Positions 4,974 to 43,208 of a stretch of 64,000 nt of DNA are shown one piece after another (position 1 is the stretch's first letter; each line of letters opens with the position of its first letter). Under the pieces are notes generated by a model. The model had not been told where the DNA came from and did not search any database. It was given only the letters and a program-made list of their open reading frames with translations. The stretch comes from Podarcis gaigeae (lineage: Eukaryota): NCBI GenBank assembly GCA_964106915.2, contig OZ066916.1. One strand, written 5' to 3'. The position numbers and the translations under genes are program-made.

Positions 4974-5162
4974 TTTAAGAAAAACTTGGAGATCCTGAGT
5001 CTGCGTATGCTGAAGAATTTCTTGCTGTAGATGCTTGAATACAGATATACACATATAAATCTGATAATCTGGGCCAAGAAAAATACAAATGGCAATGTAA
5101 TGGCAGATCTCGCTCCAGTCCAAGTAATTCCAGAAACACTGAGTCAACCATTGTTGACAGAT
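4974..5162 (-). CDS. TBC1D32: TBC1D32 coding exon 32 (189 nt; [16 protein letters not shown]...QDLQVFLK)
   Basis: tcctag| acceptor, AAA|GTAATT donor. Confidence 0.96.
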
Positions 5163-14648: not shown

Positions 14649-14683
14649 CTGCAAAGAAAAGAAAAAGTCACATAAAAATAAGT

Positions 14684-14897
14684 TCAGGTAGGTAGCAGTG
14701 TTGGTCTGATGCAGTCAAAATAAATAAATTAAAATTAAAATTGTCCAGTAGCACCTTAGAGACCAACTAAGTTTGTTCTGGGTATAAGCTTTCATCTGGT
14801 GTCTGAAGAAGTGTGCATGCACACGAAAGATTATACCCAGAACAAACTTAGTTGGTCTCTAAGGTGCTACTGGACATTTTTTTTTAAAAAAAATATT
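14684..14897. mobile_element. Penelope-like (PLE) fold-back insertion with hammerhead motif
   Basis: 13-bp TSD CATAAAAATAAGT (14671-14683, 14898-14910); 52-bp inverted arms 14742-14793 / 14825-14876; same family as the 31544 element in opposite orientation. Confidence 0.8.
14798..14837 (+). ncRNA. Minimal type I hammerhead ribozyme-like motif (mutated)
   Basis: GGTGT-CTGAAGA-A-GTGTGCATGCACAC-GAAA-GA-TT-ATACC; the AGCT palindrome is mutated to AGAT. Confidence 0.5.
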
Positions 14898-15782
14898 CAT
14901 AAAAATAAGTGTTTAACCATTTTAATCTGAATTTCTAAGAACTGTTTAAAAGATGAAGTTTGGTGGCAATCCATAATACAGTGAATTTAGTGAAAGCAAT
15001 AAATAATAGTTATTATAGTTACAATAAGACAACACTTTGGACTATCTATGGCCTTACGTTTAACAACTGAACTCTACAAGCTTCCATTTTATGACAGATA
15101 TAAATAACTGTCAGCTCATGGTTCATCACCCCTTACAACTTCATAAAACTGTCGAAGTGGCACCTTGCCTAAATACTGTCTGTAGTACTTATGCACAATC
15201 CTATGGGTGTTGCGATGGAGTTCTAGGAACCATAGGATTTTGCAGATGTATCTCACCTTCTCCATGGGCTCTGAAGAAGCTTCATCCAGGTTGCTATGAA
15301 AAGATCCATAACTACTACTTCCCCACAGAGAAGAGGGCAAAAGGGAGCATTTTGAGGGTGGATTTAAGTGGTGTCTTTGGATCTGCTTGAATCCAAAGCC
15401 CTTTCACTCTGAAACCGTAGGGAAAGAATGCCGACCCTTTGGCTGGTGTCCTTCTTTTCCCTATTCAAATTCTTGGGAAAAAAACTAAGAGCCAATAGGA
15501 GGAGAGAAAAAATGGGAACAACGCCATCACACCTTCTGTCCTGACAGTGCATTCCCAGAGGGCTTTGGATTTTGTGATTTGTCTTCTATAACTACTAACC
15601 ACTCCCAACACTGTTGCTTTGTCTAGCACTTATCCAGCAGACAGAACTTGACATCAAGTGCTCTTCTCCAATATTTGACTCAACTCAGCCTTTTGCCAAG
15701 TATGGGTAGCATCCAGTAAAAACAATAGCCTAATTCACTATAATCAAAATGAACCAACGGATTATCCTGTTTCACAGTCTCT

Positions 15783-22949: not shown

Positions 22950-23395
22950 TTTGTGGTTGTTTAGTCCAGTGTTTCCCAACCTTGGGCCTCCAGCTGTTTT
23001 TGGACTACAACTCCCATCATCCCTAGCTAGCAAGACCAGTGGTCAGGGATGATGGGAATTGTAGTTCAAAAACAGCTGGAGGCCCAAGGTTGGGAAACAC
23101 TGGTTAGTCATTTAGTCGTGTCCGATTCTTCGTGATCCCATGGACCAGAGCATGCTGGTAGCTTCGAGAACACTATCCAACCATCTCGTCCTCTGTTGTC
23201 CCCTTCTCCTTGTGTCCTCCATCTTTTCCAACATCAGGGTCTTTTCTTCTCTTCTCATGAGGTGGCCAAAGTATTGGAGGCTCAGCTTCAGGATCTGTCC
23301 TTCCAGTGAGCACTCAGGGCTGATTTCCTTAAGAATGGATAGGTTTGATCTGCTTGCAGTCCATGGGACTCTCAAGAGTCTCCTCCAGCACCATA
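22950..23395 (-). mobile_element. Bov-B (RTE) LINE 3' fragment, tail interrupted by a MITE
   Basis: ORF 23112-23423 LWCWRRLLRVPWTA..SNLSILKEISPECSLEGQILKL..QYFGHLMRR...RRRGQQRTRWLD is the Bov-B ORF C-terminus. Confidence 0.92.
22967..23102. mobile_element. Palindromic hAT-type MITE (136 bp)
   Basis: 58-bp arms with 2 mismatches, ends CAGTGTTTCCCAAC; near-TSD GTTTAGTC / GTTAGTC. Degenerate relatives at ~31140, ~47935, 51501, ~62660. Confidence 0.85.
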
Positions 23396-27506: not shown

Positions 27507-27996
27507 CTGCAGAATGTAATATTTTGAAATATCAGAACATTACAAGTTATGGGAAATGCAGAGCAGCACTACACAAGTTTAAATATTTTGGAGTTGAGTT
27601 CTTTTTTTTTAAAAAAAGAAACAAACTAACTGCTGTAATACAAAGCAGAATTAGGAACCTGGGACACAGCATATGGTTTGCATGTAGAATACCACTGACC
27701 TATCCTAGAACACCATTTGAAACAATACTGTTATCTACAGTCAAGGTATGTCTATTATATTCTTGCATGTGCACACTGCCTTTTTATTGCTTCTTGTTGA
27801 ATACTGCTAAACTGACTGTCAATTTCTTATTGTCAGTTTTGTTCCAAGGAGAAGGGGCTTTAATTACCAGTTCTTCCTTTTATTTTTTCTTCTATTTTTT
27901 ATACAACAACATTGTTTTACTATACAAAGCTCCTTTCTGCAATAGGAACAGAAACTGATAGGGAACAATGTAGAAAGGCTTTATAGAAACAATTTA

Positions 27997-28185
27997 CAGT
28001 CGTACCTCGGCTTACATGTCCCTCTGGTTACGTAAACTTCGGGATACGTAAGAAGCAAACCCGGAGGTATATTTCTGGGTTTTTGCCGTGCACACATGTG
28101 CAGAAGTGGTCCCTCCGGTTGCGGAAACCTCGGGATCCGACCGGAGCTCCGGAACGGATCCTGTCTGCAACCGGAGGTACCACTG
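27997..28185. mobile_element. TcMar-Tigger-like MITE
   Basis: TA-CAGTCGTACCTCGG...CCGGAGGTACCACTG-TA; related copy at 54209 in opposite orientation. Confidence 0.8.
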
Positions 28186-31100
28186 TACAGGCTATTCATC
28201 AGTGAGCCCTAGTCAGTGAGCCCTACTCATCAGTGAGCTACACAAAACAGAAAGAAGCAAAACAAAAACATGAAACTAGGAAGCTTGTATCTAAAAGCCC
28301 AGGAGTGATGAATACCCTTTGGGATGTCCACACCAGACAGGGTGCGTCCTCCAGTTGTGTTTTAATTTATATACCAAAAAAATCAGCGGAAATTTTGCCA
28401 GAAAAGGGAGCGCACAATGTAAGGAAGTAACAACATCCCAACAATGCCACCCATTTTCTCTGAAAAAAAGTGAATGAACCAAGGATGGCAACAGTGCAAG
28501 CAAGCTAGCATGGAAACAACCTTTGGTCCCTTTATGAAAGAAAATTGCCTTCCCAGTGTTGTGATCCTATACCCATTTATATGGGAATAGGCGATATGGT
28601 TTAGTCCTAAGTAGACATATACAGAATTGCACTGAATTTTACATGGCTGGTTTGTCCAAATTTATCTCATCCATGCCATGTAACCCAAATGCTCCATTTC
28701 ATGAATAGGTGGAAGAAGAGCCCAACATAATATTGCAGTGGACCCAGCCTTCTTTCTCATTCGGCTGCTGAAAAACAAAGCTACTAGAGGCAATGTAGTA
28801 ATAACTATTTTTAGTTTCAAAAGCCTATTCATTTGCTTGAATGTTTTATTCATAAAATTATTCTCCATAATCTTCAGGACAAGCATTCATTCGTTAGTAT
28901 ATTTCAAGAAGTGATACAGAGAGATTAATAAAATCAATACTGAGACATTTAATGCTTTCATAAAGATTTATAGGATAAAAGAGAAGCATTCATATTTCCA
29001 TTACTGATGATCATGTCATTCTAAAACATTTATAGTATGAAAAGATTATTATGAATTACTTATGAGTAATCAGTGTGGGGAGAAACATTATGATGCATTC
29101 AGAAAATCAGTGTGATATCAAAATAATTTTTCATACACAAATGCCCTTTTCTGCATGGCATGCCTTTGACAGTTTAATTTGAATATTACTAGCAAACAAA
29201 GGAAACAAAAGCACCCATTGATATTAAAACTAGAATATTTTAGCCCACTAATCCAGACCATTTTCTATCCAAGTTACCCACACTAAATGCCTTTGCATGA
29301 ATTATACTGCACTTTCATGAGCTCCTAACAGATGCACATCTTTTATATAACTTGTGAAACTGGTCACCACTTTATCCCTTGGTCTAGGACTAAAAGCCCT
29401 GATTGCTCTTTTGTGCTCATAGCCAATGTTCCCTAGTTGTTTCAAAAGGTATGGAAAATGTGACACTATTCTTTAGCCCTCTGTTCTGCATCTGATATCA
29501 GTAATGGCGGTTTCATATTGCAAATCTAATGCAGTTCAAAGGAACTATTTCCATTTACTGTACTTGTTCTGCTAGCCATGCTATTTTAGGTCTTTCCATT
29601 TTTTTCCTGTTAACTTCTGTTAATCTTGCTTTTCAAGATTTCAAGTAAAACAAATGCAAATTGATGTGCGTATGTACAGATTGTGACATGAATGTTTTAT
29701 TTAATTATTTGTTTCCTGTACCTGCAGTCAGGTTTTAATACCACTGGAAACAGGCCAGATGTGAATATATAACAAAACAGGGATTCCCACCTCCTCATTA
29801 ATATATGACATGTTAATTTATCCTCCTCCATTGACAATACTCAGATTCTGTAGAACACGGTACATTCGTTTAAAAGATACAGTTCCCTAAAACTATTGCT
29901 GAAGATTGTTTACACAACATAATTACAATTCCAGTAGAGAAACTGGAGGAAAATACAATCTGTTTTGTTTTCCAAAACAAAAATTAGAACGACTGCAATA
30001 TCCTGTATAATTTGCAGTAATTATTTTTTTTTAAAAAAACTATAGGTAATACACTGATTGACAGAAGCATATTCCCAAGCAAAGTTTGTGTACAAACTAG
30101 ACAGGGACTACAGCAGCAGGCTCACCTTCCTATCAAACCAGCTTCCCTATTTGGATCAGGGACTCTGTGAGAAAGAACTGGTCTACAAAGACAAATTATA
30201 TGATAATACTATAAGTAGTTTAGACCTCAGTCTTCTCAAAATCTAAAAGGAACTGGTTGGTTTGTGAGCCTGATTCTACCCACCCCCTGTTCCGGATCTG
30301 CAAAGGAAGATTAGTACAGGGCTGCTTCCCTGTGCTTCTCCTGAGAGCATGAGCAACTATGAAACATCTAATACAGGAAATGAACCAAAATAACGTTATT
30401 AAAAACTAGAGTTGACAGGTACTAAGATTACTGGAAGAGAATAAAGGTTTTAATCCAGATAATGTATCTTCAAAGTAGAGAATCCAATTTAAACTCTTGA
30501 TGCACTAATGGAAAATCTTGTGGCACTTCAGGTACAAATAAAAAGCTAAAATTAACCTGAGGCTTCTCATTATATGTTCAGAAAGAAGGACAGGCACATA
30601 ACCTAATGACAACTACTTGCACATATTTTCTTGAGAACACGATGAGCTAGTTTCTTTAGGGGAAAGCTACACATTCTCCTGAGTGTTAATTAACTGCAGC
30701 TAGGGAGCTTGGGAAACTGTTGCCTTTTGAGCCAAGATCCATTGGGAACTTCATTTCTCAGATTCCCTAGCATACAGGCCTCCCCAACAGACAATGATAA
30801 GTTTAGGAGAAAGGGAAGCAAGCAGTGAAGGCTTTCCCCTGGGAAAATTGTTTTTGAGAACTGTTTAAGAAAACTCAAAAGGGCGCCTGCCTTTCACCAG
30901 ACTTGAGGGATATCAATGTTTTGCAATATCCATCTGATGACTTGGTTTACCACTGAGATTAAGACCATAAGGAATACAATTCTTTCACTTGTATTAATGT
31001 GAAACCTATTAAAAAATCCTACTGCAAAAAAAGGAAAAACAAACCACAGGACTGTAAATACTCTCTAAGAGGATATAGCAACATTCACTTCCTATTTGAG

Positions 31101-31597
31101 ACAGTTTTATTGTGATAAATATGTTAGAGCAGCTAGACTAGGGACAGGGAACCTTTAGCCCTCCAGAAGCTGCTGGACTCCAAATCCCAGCAACCCCAGT
31201 CAACATAGCCAGTAGTCAGGGATGATAGGACCAGAAGTCCAACAACAGCTGACTATCATTGCAGTGGCCTACTGTCTCAGTTTTTATTGTGGTTTTACTG
31301 AAATTTCATTATGCTTTAAATTGTTTTAAACCCTTTTTGTAAGCTATGATGTTGACAGATGAGGTATAAATTTTAGAATGCAAATTACAATAATCTATGA
31401 TAAATGCTTCAGCATATAGTATTGTTCCACTGCTTTAGCATAGTAAATTTCATTGCTATAATGTAGAGAAATGTTAGAACTGACACTGGATTTGGTAGTC
31501 TCTTTCCTATAATTATTTTGCATAAAATAATTGTGTTAGCATTAACAAAAAAAATTCCTTCCAGTAGCACCTTAAAGACCAACTAAGTTAGTTCTTG

Positions 31598-31635
31598 GTA
31601 TGAGCTTTCGTGTGCATGCACACTTCTTCAGATAC
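31598..31635 (-). ncRNA. Minimal type I hammerhead ribozyme motif (mirror copy, sense to TBC1D32 pre-mRNA)
   Basis: Exact reverse complement of 31641-31678. Confidence 0.65.
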
Positions 31636-31640
31636 ACTGT

Positions 31641-31678
31641 GTATCTGAAGAAGTGTGCATGCACACGAAAGCTCATAC
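31641..31678 (+). ncRNA. Minimal type I hammerhead ribozyme motif
   Basis: GTAT-CTGAAGA-A-GTGTGCATGCACAC-GAAA-GC-TC-ATAC: CUGANGA, stem II, GAAA, palindromic AGCU, UH, stem I GUAU/AUAC. Confidence 0.65.
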
Positions 31679-33454
31679 CAAGAACTAACTTAGTTGGTCT
31701 TTAAGGTGCTACTGGAAGGAATTTTTTTTGTTTTGACTATGGCAGACCAACACGGCTACCTATCTGTAACTGTGTTAGCATTGTTTTAGACATGGGTTGA
31801 GATTCGGTGGGAAACAGCTCTAATATGTGGATTTGGCTCTCCAATGAGTCCTCCTCCCTCTGACACATTGCTGCATTAGATGTAAACTCACAACAGTCAA
31901 CAAGCTCTACTGAAGCTGATCTACTTCAGCAAAGGACATTTGTCAGGAACAGGGAACAGGGTCTGCCACATACTAACAACACCTTCCAATCTGAGGCAGA
32001 AGAAAAAGAGAGATATTGGGGACAGACGGAGGACCAGAATAGCACAGCACATGGCACAAGTCTAAAATTACAGCAGCTAGAATCACACTTTCACTTCACA
32101 CAGAAGTGAACAAAATTGACCTACAGAAAGTGGTAAAAGCGAGTGAACTGAGCAGGAAAAAACGTCTTCATTCTGTGCTAGCAAAAGATATTAACTCCTG
32201 AAGCATGCTTAATCAGTATCCTGCTGATTAACTTGTTAACATATATAAAGCCCTGAACAACTTGGGACCAGGTTATCTGAAAGATTGCCTGGTCCAATAT
32301 ATTATTATTGTTATAATCATTGCTATTGTTGTTGCCATTTATTACCCAGCTGGTGTCTGTGAGCTCCCAAAAGGGCCTTTGGTCCACTGGAAACTCCCAC
32401 TAACTGAAAAGGAGGAGGAACACATTTTTGCTTATTCTCTCTTCTCCATGCCACATTTCACATTGCTCTGGAAGGGCCCCCAACCCTTTGAAGCCAATTT
32501 TCAGGGTGTGTGCTGGGAGCTGCAACGGAAGGGTGAATAGGGTTGCCATATGTCTGGGAATTCCCGGACGTGTCCTCTTTTCACGGTCCTACATGCCCTT
32601 CCCTTTGCCATACATGAAGAATGCAATCATCAGTTGCTTCAGATGTGAAAACTTCTCTTCCACTAACCCATAAGACTGGACCCTGTTTTACATGTTTGAA
32701 TCTTCAACAGTTTTTTCTCTCACTGTTATACTTTTTTATATTGCTGTTTTACTGGTTTAGGTTGTGCTTTTTTGGTTTAATAATCTACTCTTTGTTTGTT
32801 ACACTATACACAGCTTAGAGATTTTTGTAACGTTAAATAGTATATAAATGCTTTTAAAAAAAATAAACAATAACAAAAAGGTTGTGCTCATCAAACCAGG
32901 CACAGGAAATCCGACATTCAAAGATTCAAGACTGCATACAACCAATAAGCTACAAAACATCAGTCAAAACCACTGCAGCTCTTAATTAAAATTTCAGCAT
33001 CCTATTTCTTTCCTTATCCAACAAGAGACAGCAAGGAGTAACAGTTTAAGTGCATAAGTTCTTTCTATTGTGTCAGCACAGCAAAAATTGTAGACTGCAT
33101 CCCAAGCAGCTAAGAGTTCCAACCCCCAAAGCAACCTATGATAAACAATATAATGGGGGGGGGGGCACACCAAAGATTTGCGTTGAGAGGATTTTCTCTA
33201 AGCCTCATATGAACTTGGGTACAATACAAGTTGTCTAGGGGAAATACTTATTTTGTGCATAGTCTAATTTCCCTGAATGTATATTGGCCTTCATTGCCAT
33301 ACAGCACTCAACCTGTATATTTCACTCACAGATACCTCTACCCTCATCCCCATATTGGCCAGATTCATAAGCATTTTACCAAGTCAGCATTGCAGAACAG
33401 AATAAACTAGCTGATTATTTTACCTTAAGTGAATCAGAAAATTTAGTATCTTAC

Positions 33455-41630: not shown

Positions 41631-43208
41631 ATGGGAAAAAGAATGTGTACCCTCTTTGAATTCTGTGGTTTTACATATAGAGACATAACAACAATCATCT
41701 GTTCCTTAGCAGGTCTTAAAATTAGGTAAATACAACCTCAGATGAACAATAACAAATGACATATTACACCATGTCAAGATTTATTTAACAGAAGTAAAGC
41801 CAAAATGGAGAAAACGTGTGAAAAACTAAGTACACCATTTTTCCATCCACAGGAATTAAGAGGCCAAGTAGCAGACAGATGCTGCTAATCAAATGCACTT
41901 GCTTGCTTAATTGATCATCAGTAAGTGTGCCCACCTCTATAAAAGCCAAAGTTTTAAGTTTGCTGGTCTGGAGCATTCAGGTATGTTTTAACACAATGCC
42001 AAGGAGGAAATAGGGCACAGTGCTCTTAGAAAAGCAAGTGCTGCTACCCATGAAACTGGGAAGGGTTCTAAGGCCATCTCCAACCAATTTTAAGTCCATC
42101 ATTCTACAGTGAGAAAGCTTATTCAAAAGTGGAAAACATTGAAGTCAGTTGCAGTCTTCCCAGGAGTGGATGCCTTAGCAAATTCATCCCAAGATCAGAC
42201 TGTGCAGTGCTCAAATTGCAAAAACCCCCAGAATTCCATCTCAGGCCCTACAGGCCTCAGCTAGCATGTTAAATGTTAAAGTTCATGACAGCACAATTAG
42301 AAAAAGACAGAACAAATATAGTTTGCTGGGAAGGATTGCCAGGAAAAAGCCTCTTCCCTCTAAAAAGAACATGGCAGAACAGATTAGTTCAGTTGCATCT
42401 TAACAAACCACAAGATTTCAGGAACAATGTCCTTTGGACAGACAAGACCAAAGTGGAGATGTTTTGTCATAATGCACAGCACCATGTTTAGCAAAAACCA
42501 AACACAGCACAAGCACCTCACACCAACTGTCAAGCACGATTTTGGAAGGGTGATGATTTGGGTTTATTTTGCAGCTACAGGACTTGGGAAACTTGTGGCT
42601 ATTGAGTCAACTATGAACTCCTCTGTATACTAAAGTATTCTACAGTCAAATGTGAAGCCATCTGCCTGACAGCTGAAGCCTGGTTGAAATTGGGTCATGC
42701 AACAGGACAAGGATCCCAAGCACACCAGCAAATCTACAACAGAATGGCTGAAAAAGAATAGAATCAATGGCCCAGTCAAAGTCCAGACCTCAGTACAATT
42801 GAAATGCTGTGCGGGACCTTAAGAGAGCTGTGCATCAACAAATGCCAGCAAACCTCAATGAACTGAAGCAACGTTGTAGAGAAGAGTGAGGCAAAATTCC
42901 TCCACAATGATGCGAGAGACTGATTAAGTCCTACAGAAAATGATTACTTCAAGTTATTGCTGCTAAAGGTGGTTCTACAAACAACTGAATCATAAGGTGT
43001 ACTTAGTTTTTCACACATAGCTTCTCCATTTCCGTTTTATTTCTGTTAAATAAATCATGACACAGTGTCATATGCCATTTGCTATTGTTCATCTGAGGCT
43101 GCATTTACATAATTTTAAGTCCTGCTAAGGAACAGATGATTGCTATTATGTCTTCATATGTAAAGCCACAGAATTCAAAGAGGGTGCACTTTCTTTTTCC
43201 CATGACTG
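41631..43208 (+). mobile_element. Decayed Tc1-family DNA transposon with ~210-bp IR/DR termini
   Basis: Left TIR 41631-41836 is the inverse of right TIR 42996-43208 (ends CATGACTG-TA); outer 5 bp of the left end missing; encloses a transposase remnant. Confidence 0.92.
41996..42988 (+). pseudogene. Tc1 DDE transposase pseudogene
   Basis: MPRRK* start; NVLWTDKTKVEMF, PTVKHDFGRVMIW, WVMQQDKDPKHTSKST, WPSQSPDL..IE, AKGGST..*; several stops and frameshifts. Confidence 0.9.

Follow-up and report, generated by a model that had tools for sequence, protein, structure and literature searches.

A young insertion in a TBC1D32 intron is very probably a head-to-head pair of truncated Penelope-like ends with a hammerhead predicted to be hairpin-locked

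A perfect palindrome with a hammerhead motif in each arm lies in an intron of TBC1D32 in the DNA analyzed here (a stretch of 64,000 nucleotides, referred to below as the window). What is this insertion, how did it come to consist of two mirrored arms, and does it supply the pre-mRNA with a ribozyme that works? A regulatory ribozyme switch in an intron of a ciliopathy gene would be striking, but the geometry of the insertion argues against it. Our analysis indicates that the insertion very probably derives from the end of a Penelope-like retroelement (PLE) that bears a hammerhead, present here as two 5′-truncated copies placed head-to-head, with the ribozyme predicted to be locked in a hairpin and likely without a switch.

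Structure and age of the insertion

Pfam matches to BROMI and BROMI_C place the exons of TBC1D32 (BROMI) in order on the minus strand from 39.6 kb down to 0.8 kb. The insertion lies in a GT...AG intron of 5947 nt (27507..33453, minus strand), whose splice sites were read from the sequence and whose flanking exons match BROMI 663-681 above and BROMI_C 1-33 below, with no Pfam exon between them among the ORFs scanned. The intronic position given by a sequence-only reading of this DNA is thereby confirmed; the element is 1.7 kb from the intron donor and 4.0 kb from the acceptor. The same intron contains a weak 80-bp palindrome (77%) at 28105-28184. A MITE-like 138-bp palindrome (84%) is found at 22966-23103, and an older fragment related to it, repetitive in all four sequencing runs compared, lies at 31150-31251, 300 nt left of the insertion. 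At 41631-43203 there is an element of ~1.57 kb with ~208-bp terminal inverted repeats that are 88% alike, and we take the broken frames inside it to resemble Tc1/mariner transposase.

The arms of the insertion, at 31544-31637 and 31639-31732, are exact 94-bp reverse complements around T31638. They are flanked on the plus strand by an exact 12-bp direct repeat, TGTGTTAGCATT, at 31532-31543 and 31771-31782, and in both respects the sequence agrees with what the sequence-only reading had described. That reading took the 189-bp palindrome to be the whole insertion; the palindrome stands, but its extent does not, because a 38-nt tail (31733..31770, plus strand) is attached to the right arm only, and the insertion of palindrome plus tail measures 227 bp. 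Ends of family contigs cluster at 31771, which is the commonest loose end in X1, X2, and X10 and the second commonest in X6 (46–62 contigs; among the 24 of 1204 entries listed).

We compared the region 31150-32150 with contigs from 4 of the 24 listed sequencing runs, all of DNA type or without a label: X1 and X2 (organism A), X6 (organism B), and X10 (organism E). In all four, family contigs carry the left arm through 31639 into common upstream sequence, and T31638 is therefore probably part of the inverted copy; the position of the proposed 1-nt spacer is correct, but its role as a spacer is not. Accordingly, the left side of the palindrome is probably an inverted, 5′-truncated, tail-less pLTR copy with a hammerhead at 31544..31639 (minus strand), which from 31544 to 31637 matches the right arm's reverse complement exactly, and the right side is a direct 5′-truncated pLTR copy at 31639..31732 (plus strand), homologous to a second copy elsewhere in the window. 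The two copies probably overlap by 0–1 nt, with truncations 2–3 nt apart.

One contig each in X6 and X10 covers 31150-31531 and then joins 31771 directly. These contigs lack 239 nt, the 227 + 12 nt expected for the insertion and one copy of the TSD, and they differ from the window in their flanks at 12 of 762 letters (1.6%) in X6 and at 28 of 762 letters (3.7%) in X10. Because 31531 is joined to 31771 in both runs, the 12-bp direct repeat is a true TSD, present as a single copy at the empty site. In X1, which may be the source sample of the assembly itself, a left flank contig crosses the TSD without a break into the inverted arm as far as 31571 (31554 in X2), and a right flank contig begins within the tail at 31749 (X1 and X2). 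These junction contigs enter the element by 28 and 22 nt (X1) and by 11 and 22 nt (X2), which is below the 31-nt bridging rule; short overlaps of this kind are expected where contigs run into a high-copy repeat. The insertion is present in both organism A samples, with no polymorphism between them, and absent from both relatives. The TSD, the orientation, and the lineage restriction are thus backed by raw-data contigs, and a young, lineage-specific insertion is supported, although its description as "very recent" has to be softened because both organism A samples carry it. The locus provides a clean presence/absence marker separating organism A from two relatives.

It is very improbable that the perfect mirror arose as an assembly artefact. 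The center of this copy is spanned by none of the contigs listed, so that its letters rest on the assembly, and inverted Penelope structures are described as troublesome for assemblies (PMC8557442). However, contigs from two runs enter the inverted arm from the left flank and leave the tail into the right flank, the TSD is fixed by the empty site, and a second, imperfect copy in the window has the same plan.

The target site is AT-rich, and each end of the TSD carries ATT. The 227-bp copy has no coding part: an ORF for RT + GIY-YIG is absent from it. We infer the pLTR status of the repeat from its other features. Pfam found no RT or GIY-YIG in the 300 of 493 minus-strand stop-free stretches scanned (272-39821), and because no RT + GIY-YIG partner was found, family membership rests on non-coding features. 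Those features are the ones expected of an EN+ Penelope-like insertion, namely a hammerhead-bearing repeat, a head-to-head 5′-truncated inverted copy, a tail of 30–40 bp at one end, and a short TSD at an AT-rich target, and they support the Penelope-type origin that had been proposed from the sequence.

The typical Penelope structure consists of pLTRs with an adjacent inverted pLTR, an optional 31-bp tail on one of them, and a TSD of 8–10 bp, and head-to-head junctions are the most frequent (Arkhipova et al. 2013, PMC3846280). In the EN+ clades, an inverted 5′-truncated copy is accompanied by a 30–40-bp tail at one end (Craig et al. 2021, PMC8557442), and a tail of this length is described in PMC11167929 too. 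The insertion shares with these published units the head-to-head inverted truncated copy, the tail on one arm (38 nt here), the short TSD, a junction with almost no gap or a slight overlap, and the hammerhead in the pLTR; it differs in that both of its copies are shorter than 135 nt, with no ORF left, and in that its TSD is 12 bp as against 8–10 bp in the rotifer examples (PMC3846280). Inverted terminal repeats of varying size are also described for the element of D. virilis (Schostak et al. 2008, PMC2377424). Poseidon PAc of Anolis carolinensis (PMC11167929) is likewise a reptile-type PLE with a hammerhead, a tail, and an AT-rich target, a likeness in general features. The architecture of the insertion is therefore the published default for Penelope-like elements and is unsurprising.

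The hammerhead motif and its predicted fold

A minimal type I hammerhead motif at 31641..31678 (plus strand) was identified from the sequence, from constrained folding, and from the consensus features of PMC4209133. It comprises a 4-bp stem I, GTAT/ATAC (31641-44/31675-78), the CUGAAGA core (31645-51) with an extra A (31652), stem II (31653-57/31662-66, within 31653-66), GAAA (31667-70), the palindromic AGCU (31670-73), and GC-TC, with a predicted cut after C31674. The mirror copy at 31598..31635 (minus strand) has its predicted cut 3′ of base 31602. The hammerhead letters, both cut positions, and the 4-bp stem I are all where the sequence-only reading had put them. Its stem II of 5–6 bp is upheld at 5 bp, which allows a 4-nt loop, and not at 6, since a sixth pair would leave a loop of 2 nt.

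Cervera and De la Pena (2014, PMC4209133) describe a minimal hammerhead (min-HHR) with four consensus traits, all of which are present here. Like the metazoan PLE motifs of that study, which include reptiles, the motif has the core boxes, the extra base 9/10.1, G10.1-C11.1, a 4-bp stem I together with stem II, and the palindromic 15.2-16.2, and it has no stem III. It differs in that stem II has 5 bp, within a fully self-complementary 14-mer, compared with 7–8 bp in the schistosome motifs, and in that the two cores are 14 nt apart, whereas pairs of minimal hammerheads on opposite strands are reported there at ~100–700 bp (PMC4209133). A search with hammerhead models, which had been suggested as a check, returned no Rfam hammerhead family at E≤10 on either the region or a single arm (29 and 3 matches), as expected because the motif has no stem III. 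The miRNA matches in the Rfam output fell below gathering scores, and we rejected them as effects of the perfect stem. Stem II contains an ATG, the place where the ORF of PAc begins (PMC11167929), but we rejected it as an ORF start; such a start is not evident here, the frame being closed by a stop after 9 codons with a length-variable T tract behind it.

The loose core motif by itself is common by chance: it matches 11 times in the window against 5.2 expected, and 3 of the 11 matches come from this Penelope-like family. A pattern scan for further copies found 0 loci in viral_contigs and 1 (L001) in metagenome_contigs. L001, a metagenome contig that is probably animal DNA, has a similar minimal hammerhead core with another stem II loop at 5001-5029; by eye, there was no RT-like long ORF among the 15 listed.

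Among the 40 of 47 family variants listed, none falls in the hammerhead stems, 1 in the core, and 4 in the 54 nt that follow. On these listed variants, the motif seems better kept than the stretch after it, as would be expected if source elements were under selection, and this counts against our own reading. The one core variant listed changes G12 (31667) to A in 11–20% of family depth in the four runs, and it may represent decay or the spreading of a subfamily with a dead ribozyme core. G12 sits in a CpG; the partner C-to-T change is absent among the same 40 of 47 listed variants.

The sequence-only reading proposed that, in TBC1D32 pre-mRNA, the palindrome could act as a kinetic switch, with self-cleavage in one state and a 94-bp dsRNA in the other. 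The sense ribozyme of this pre-mRNA is the one in the inverted copy (31544..31639, minus strand). On either strand, however, the antisense arm is transcribed first and is followed by a single sense ribozyme, and with this head-to-head order and one sense motif per transcript there is therefore no dimer in cis. According to PMC4209133, single minimal hammerheads show no cleavage and dimers show low cleavage. The element is predicted to fold as a 93-bp hairpin, in keeping with the 94-bp dsRNA predicted earlier, and a fold of this strength is not expected by chance (z = −30.8; none of 200 shuffled sequences reaches it). In equilibrium predictions that ignore proteins, the ensemble energy is −192.0 kcal/mol when folding is free and −127.4 kcal/mol when hammerhead stems I + II are forced, the hairpin is favored by 51.4 kcal/mol when the last base of the motif (in stem I) emerges and by ~65 kcal/mol afterwards, and the share of the hammerhead fold is ~1e-46.

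Three observations favor the switch. For the isolated sense arm, a fold with stems I and II is predicted to cost no more than 0.8 kcal/mol relative to the optimum, cleavage by the PAc hammerhead does occur in the presence of the PAc protein (PMC11167929), and the insertion is kept in both organism A samples. They are outweighed by the absence of stem III, by the absence of the insertion from two close relatives, and by the distance of the splice sites (1.7 and 4.0 kb); for the anole element, moreover, RNA-seq is reported to show no reads with an end at the cut site (PMC11167929). As the antisense arm comes first, no dimer is available in cis, and the energy gap favors the hairpin, a kinetic switch is very unlikely, and the ribozyme likely stays locked in the 93-bp hairpin with no switch function. 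The antisense arm, emerging first, would pair with the ribozyme strand as it emerges, and the insertion would be a dead-end passenger that is spliced out with the intron. The stem II 14-mer (31653-31666) is fully self-complementary, and folding predicts that it can hold two sense strands together (duplex −25.2 vs hairpin −4.1 kcal/mol); a strand-swapped dimer could thus be favored.

Perfect inverted repeats in general are reasonable candidates for editing by ADAR, processing by Dicer, and extrusion as a cruciform. Intronic dsRNA from the insertion is plausible on the predicted fold, and ADAR editing of the hairpin could occur as a by-product, as in other intronic inverted repeats. That inverted repeats can feed Dicer is stated in general terms in PMC7334843. 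Our literature search, which covered sources other than subscription journals and Repbase, found no usable paper on siRNA from Penelope hairpins.

Origin of the two facing copies

The mechanism by which Penelope-like elements build inverted ends is still open (PMC8557442, PMC11167929). PAc nicks and extends both strands of its target, has two RT start sites that bound the tail, and prefers ATT; its hammerhead depends on protein, and insertion in vitro does not require hammerhead cleavage (Frangieh et al. 2024, PMC11167929). By analogy with this element of another species, from which the dual-priming step is borrowed, the RT/GIY-YIG protein of the element would have nicked both strands of the AT-rich target 12 nt apart. 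Each nick would then have primed a cDNA, one of them begun at the tail end and the other at the start site that lacks the tail. The two cDNAs would have stopped after ~95–130 nt and been joined at their ends with an overlap of 0–1 nt.

We somewhat favor this dual priming, but the same identity could have arisen in another way, which we regard as a real though lesser possibility: one cDNA may have folded back, primed itself, and copied itself into the mirror arm, after which the endonuclease would have resolved the end without a tail. Evidence from this insertion and from the second copy bears on both origins. The arms of the insertion are identical even at sites that vary between subfamilies and in a T8 tract that is variable across the family, as fold-back would predict, and self-priming has been proposed for such junctions (PMC3846280). 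The second copy (14684..14897, minus strand; 13-bp TSD at 14671-14683 and 14898-14910), which is homologous to the copy at 31639..31732, belongs to another subfamily, is likewise head-to-head with a tail on one arm, and also shares its subfamily letters between arms. However, an overlap of 0–1 nt would require fold-back through a 1-nt loop. The center of the second copy is asymmetric by ~27 nt and carries a short filler, one arm being without half of the core, and the tail-less end of the insertion lies near one of the two RT start sites expected from PAc (PMC11167929). Loose ends also cluster at 31548 and 31735, but we did not take these clusters as proof of the tail-less end, as T-tract variation can create them. 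The second copy lies much nearer to a TBC1D32 exon than the copy at 31544-31770 does, its tail end being separated by just 35 nt from the downstream 3′ splice site (end of the intron at 14649, minus strand).

Abundance and truncation of the family

The repeat family is very abundant. Its summed depth in X1 is 1.7–3.2 million over the element compared with 53 in the flanks, and in all four runs depth over the element exceeds that of the flanks by a factor of tens of thousands, values that are not copy numbers; between 7,866 and 21,549 contigs per run match the region. Each of the 15 joints listed, of 414 in all, leads from the left arm into the right arm or the tail, at points that differ between joints, as expected for head-to-head copies with other centers. 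No description of the family or of the locus was found in the literature searched, which lay outside subscription journals and Repbase.

The upstream sequence of the family contains a pyrimidine-rich tract ending in CAG directly before T31640, adjoining stem I of the hammerhead, and both arms of 31544-31732 begin within 3 nt of it. In X1, X2, and X10, 31641 is the commonest 5′ boundary (27–37 contigs; among the 24 of 1204 entries listed, with low consensus agreement). Together with the missing coding part, the recurrent boundary and the start of both arms near this tract would suit a defined non-autonomous unit, whether like a retrozyme, a SINE, or a MITE, whose mobile form is the palindrome itself or a short processed RNA. 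We consider such a unit improbable, because the centers vary between copies, the tail keeps the repeat from being terminal on both sides, and many contigs carry further upstream sequence of the element. The retrozyme-like unit proposed from the sequence fares no better. Non-LTR animal retrozymes share with the insertion a non-coding nature, a type I hammerhead, and derivation from a PLE pLTR, but they are tandem same-strand units that dimerise and circularise (Li et al. 2026, 10.64898/2026.07.22.740005), whereas the two motifs here face away from each other on opposite strands. By the definition in that work, a retrozyme has at least 2 consecutive same-strand hammerhead units; none are tandem within the window, and each strand of the insertion has one sense motif.

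In a MITE or other fold-back DNA transposon, both termini are inverted repeats and the internal length is fixed. We rejected this class for the insertion, as the 38-nt tail lies outside the palindrome and centers vary between copies.

Returning to truncated Penelope-like copies, we note that the tract ending in CAG is likely, from its sequence, a splice acceptor of the element. The D. virilis element has an intron whose end falls at the 5′ side of helix I (PMC4209133), and 31641 may mark a preferred truncation point tied to splicing. An extension of this idea, unlikely on present evidence, is that the stumps of the family are cut non-randomly, with cDNA synthesis stopping, or the template beginning, at an element splice acceptor that abuts stem I.

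As a single locus, the insertion matters little; it is one of very many stumps. The family may matter more: being young and high in copy number, with variable centers and subfamily-marked arms, it could tell dual priming from fold-back by counting. If truncation at the putative splice acceptor were the rule, there would be thousands of ribozyme-plus-antisense cassettes of a preferred size genome-wide, and these would form a data set on how Penelope inverted ends are built and a mass source of intronic dsRNA directed against the family itself.
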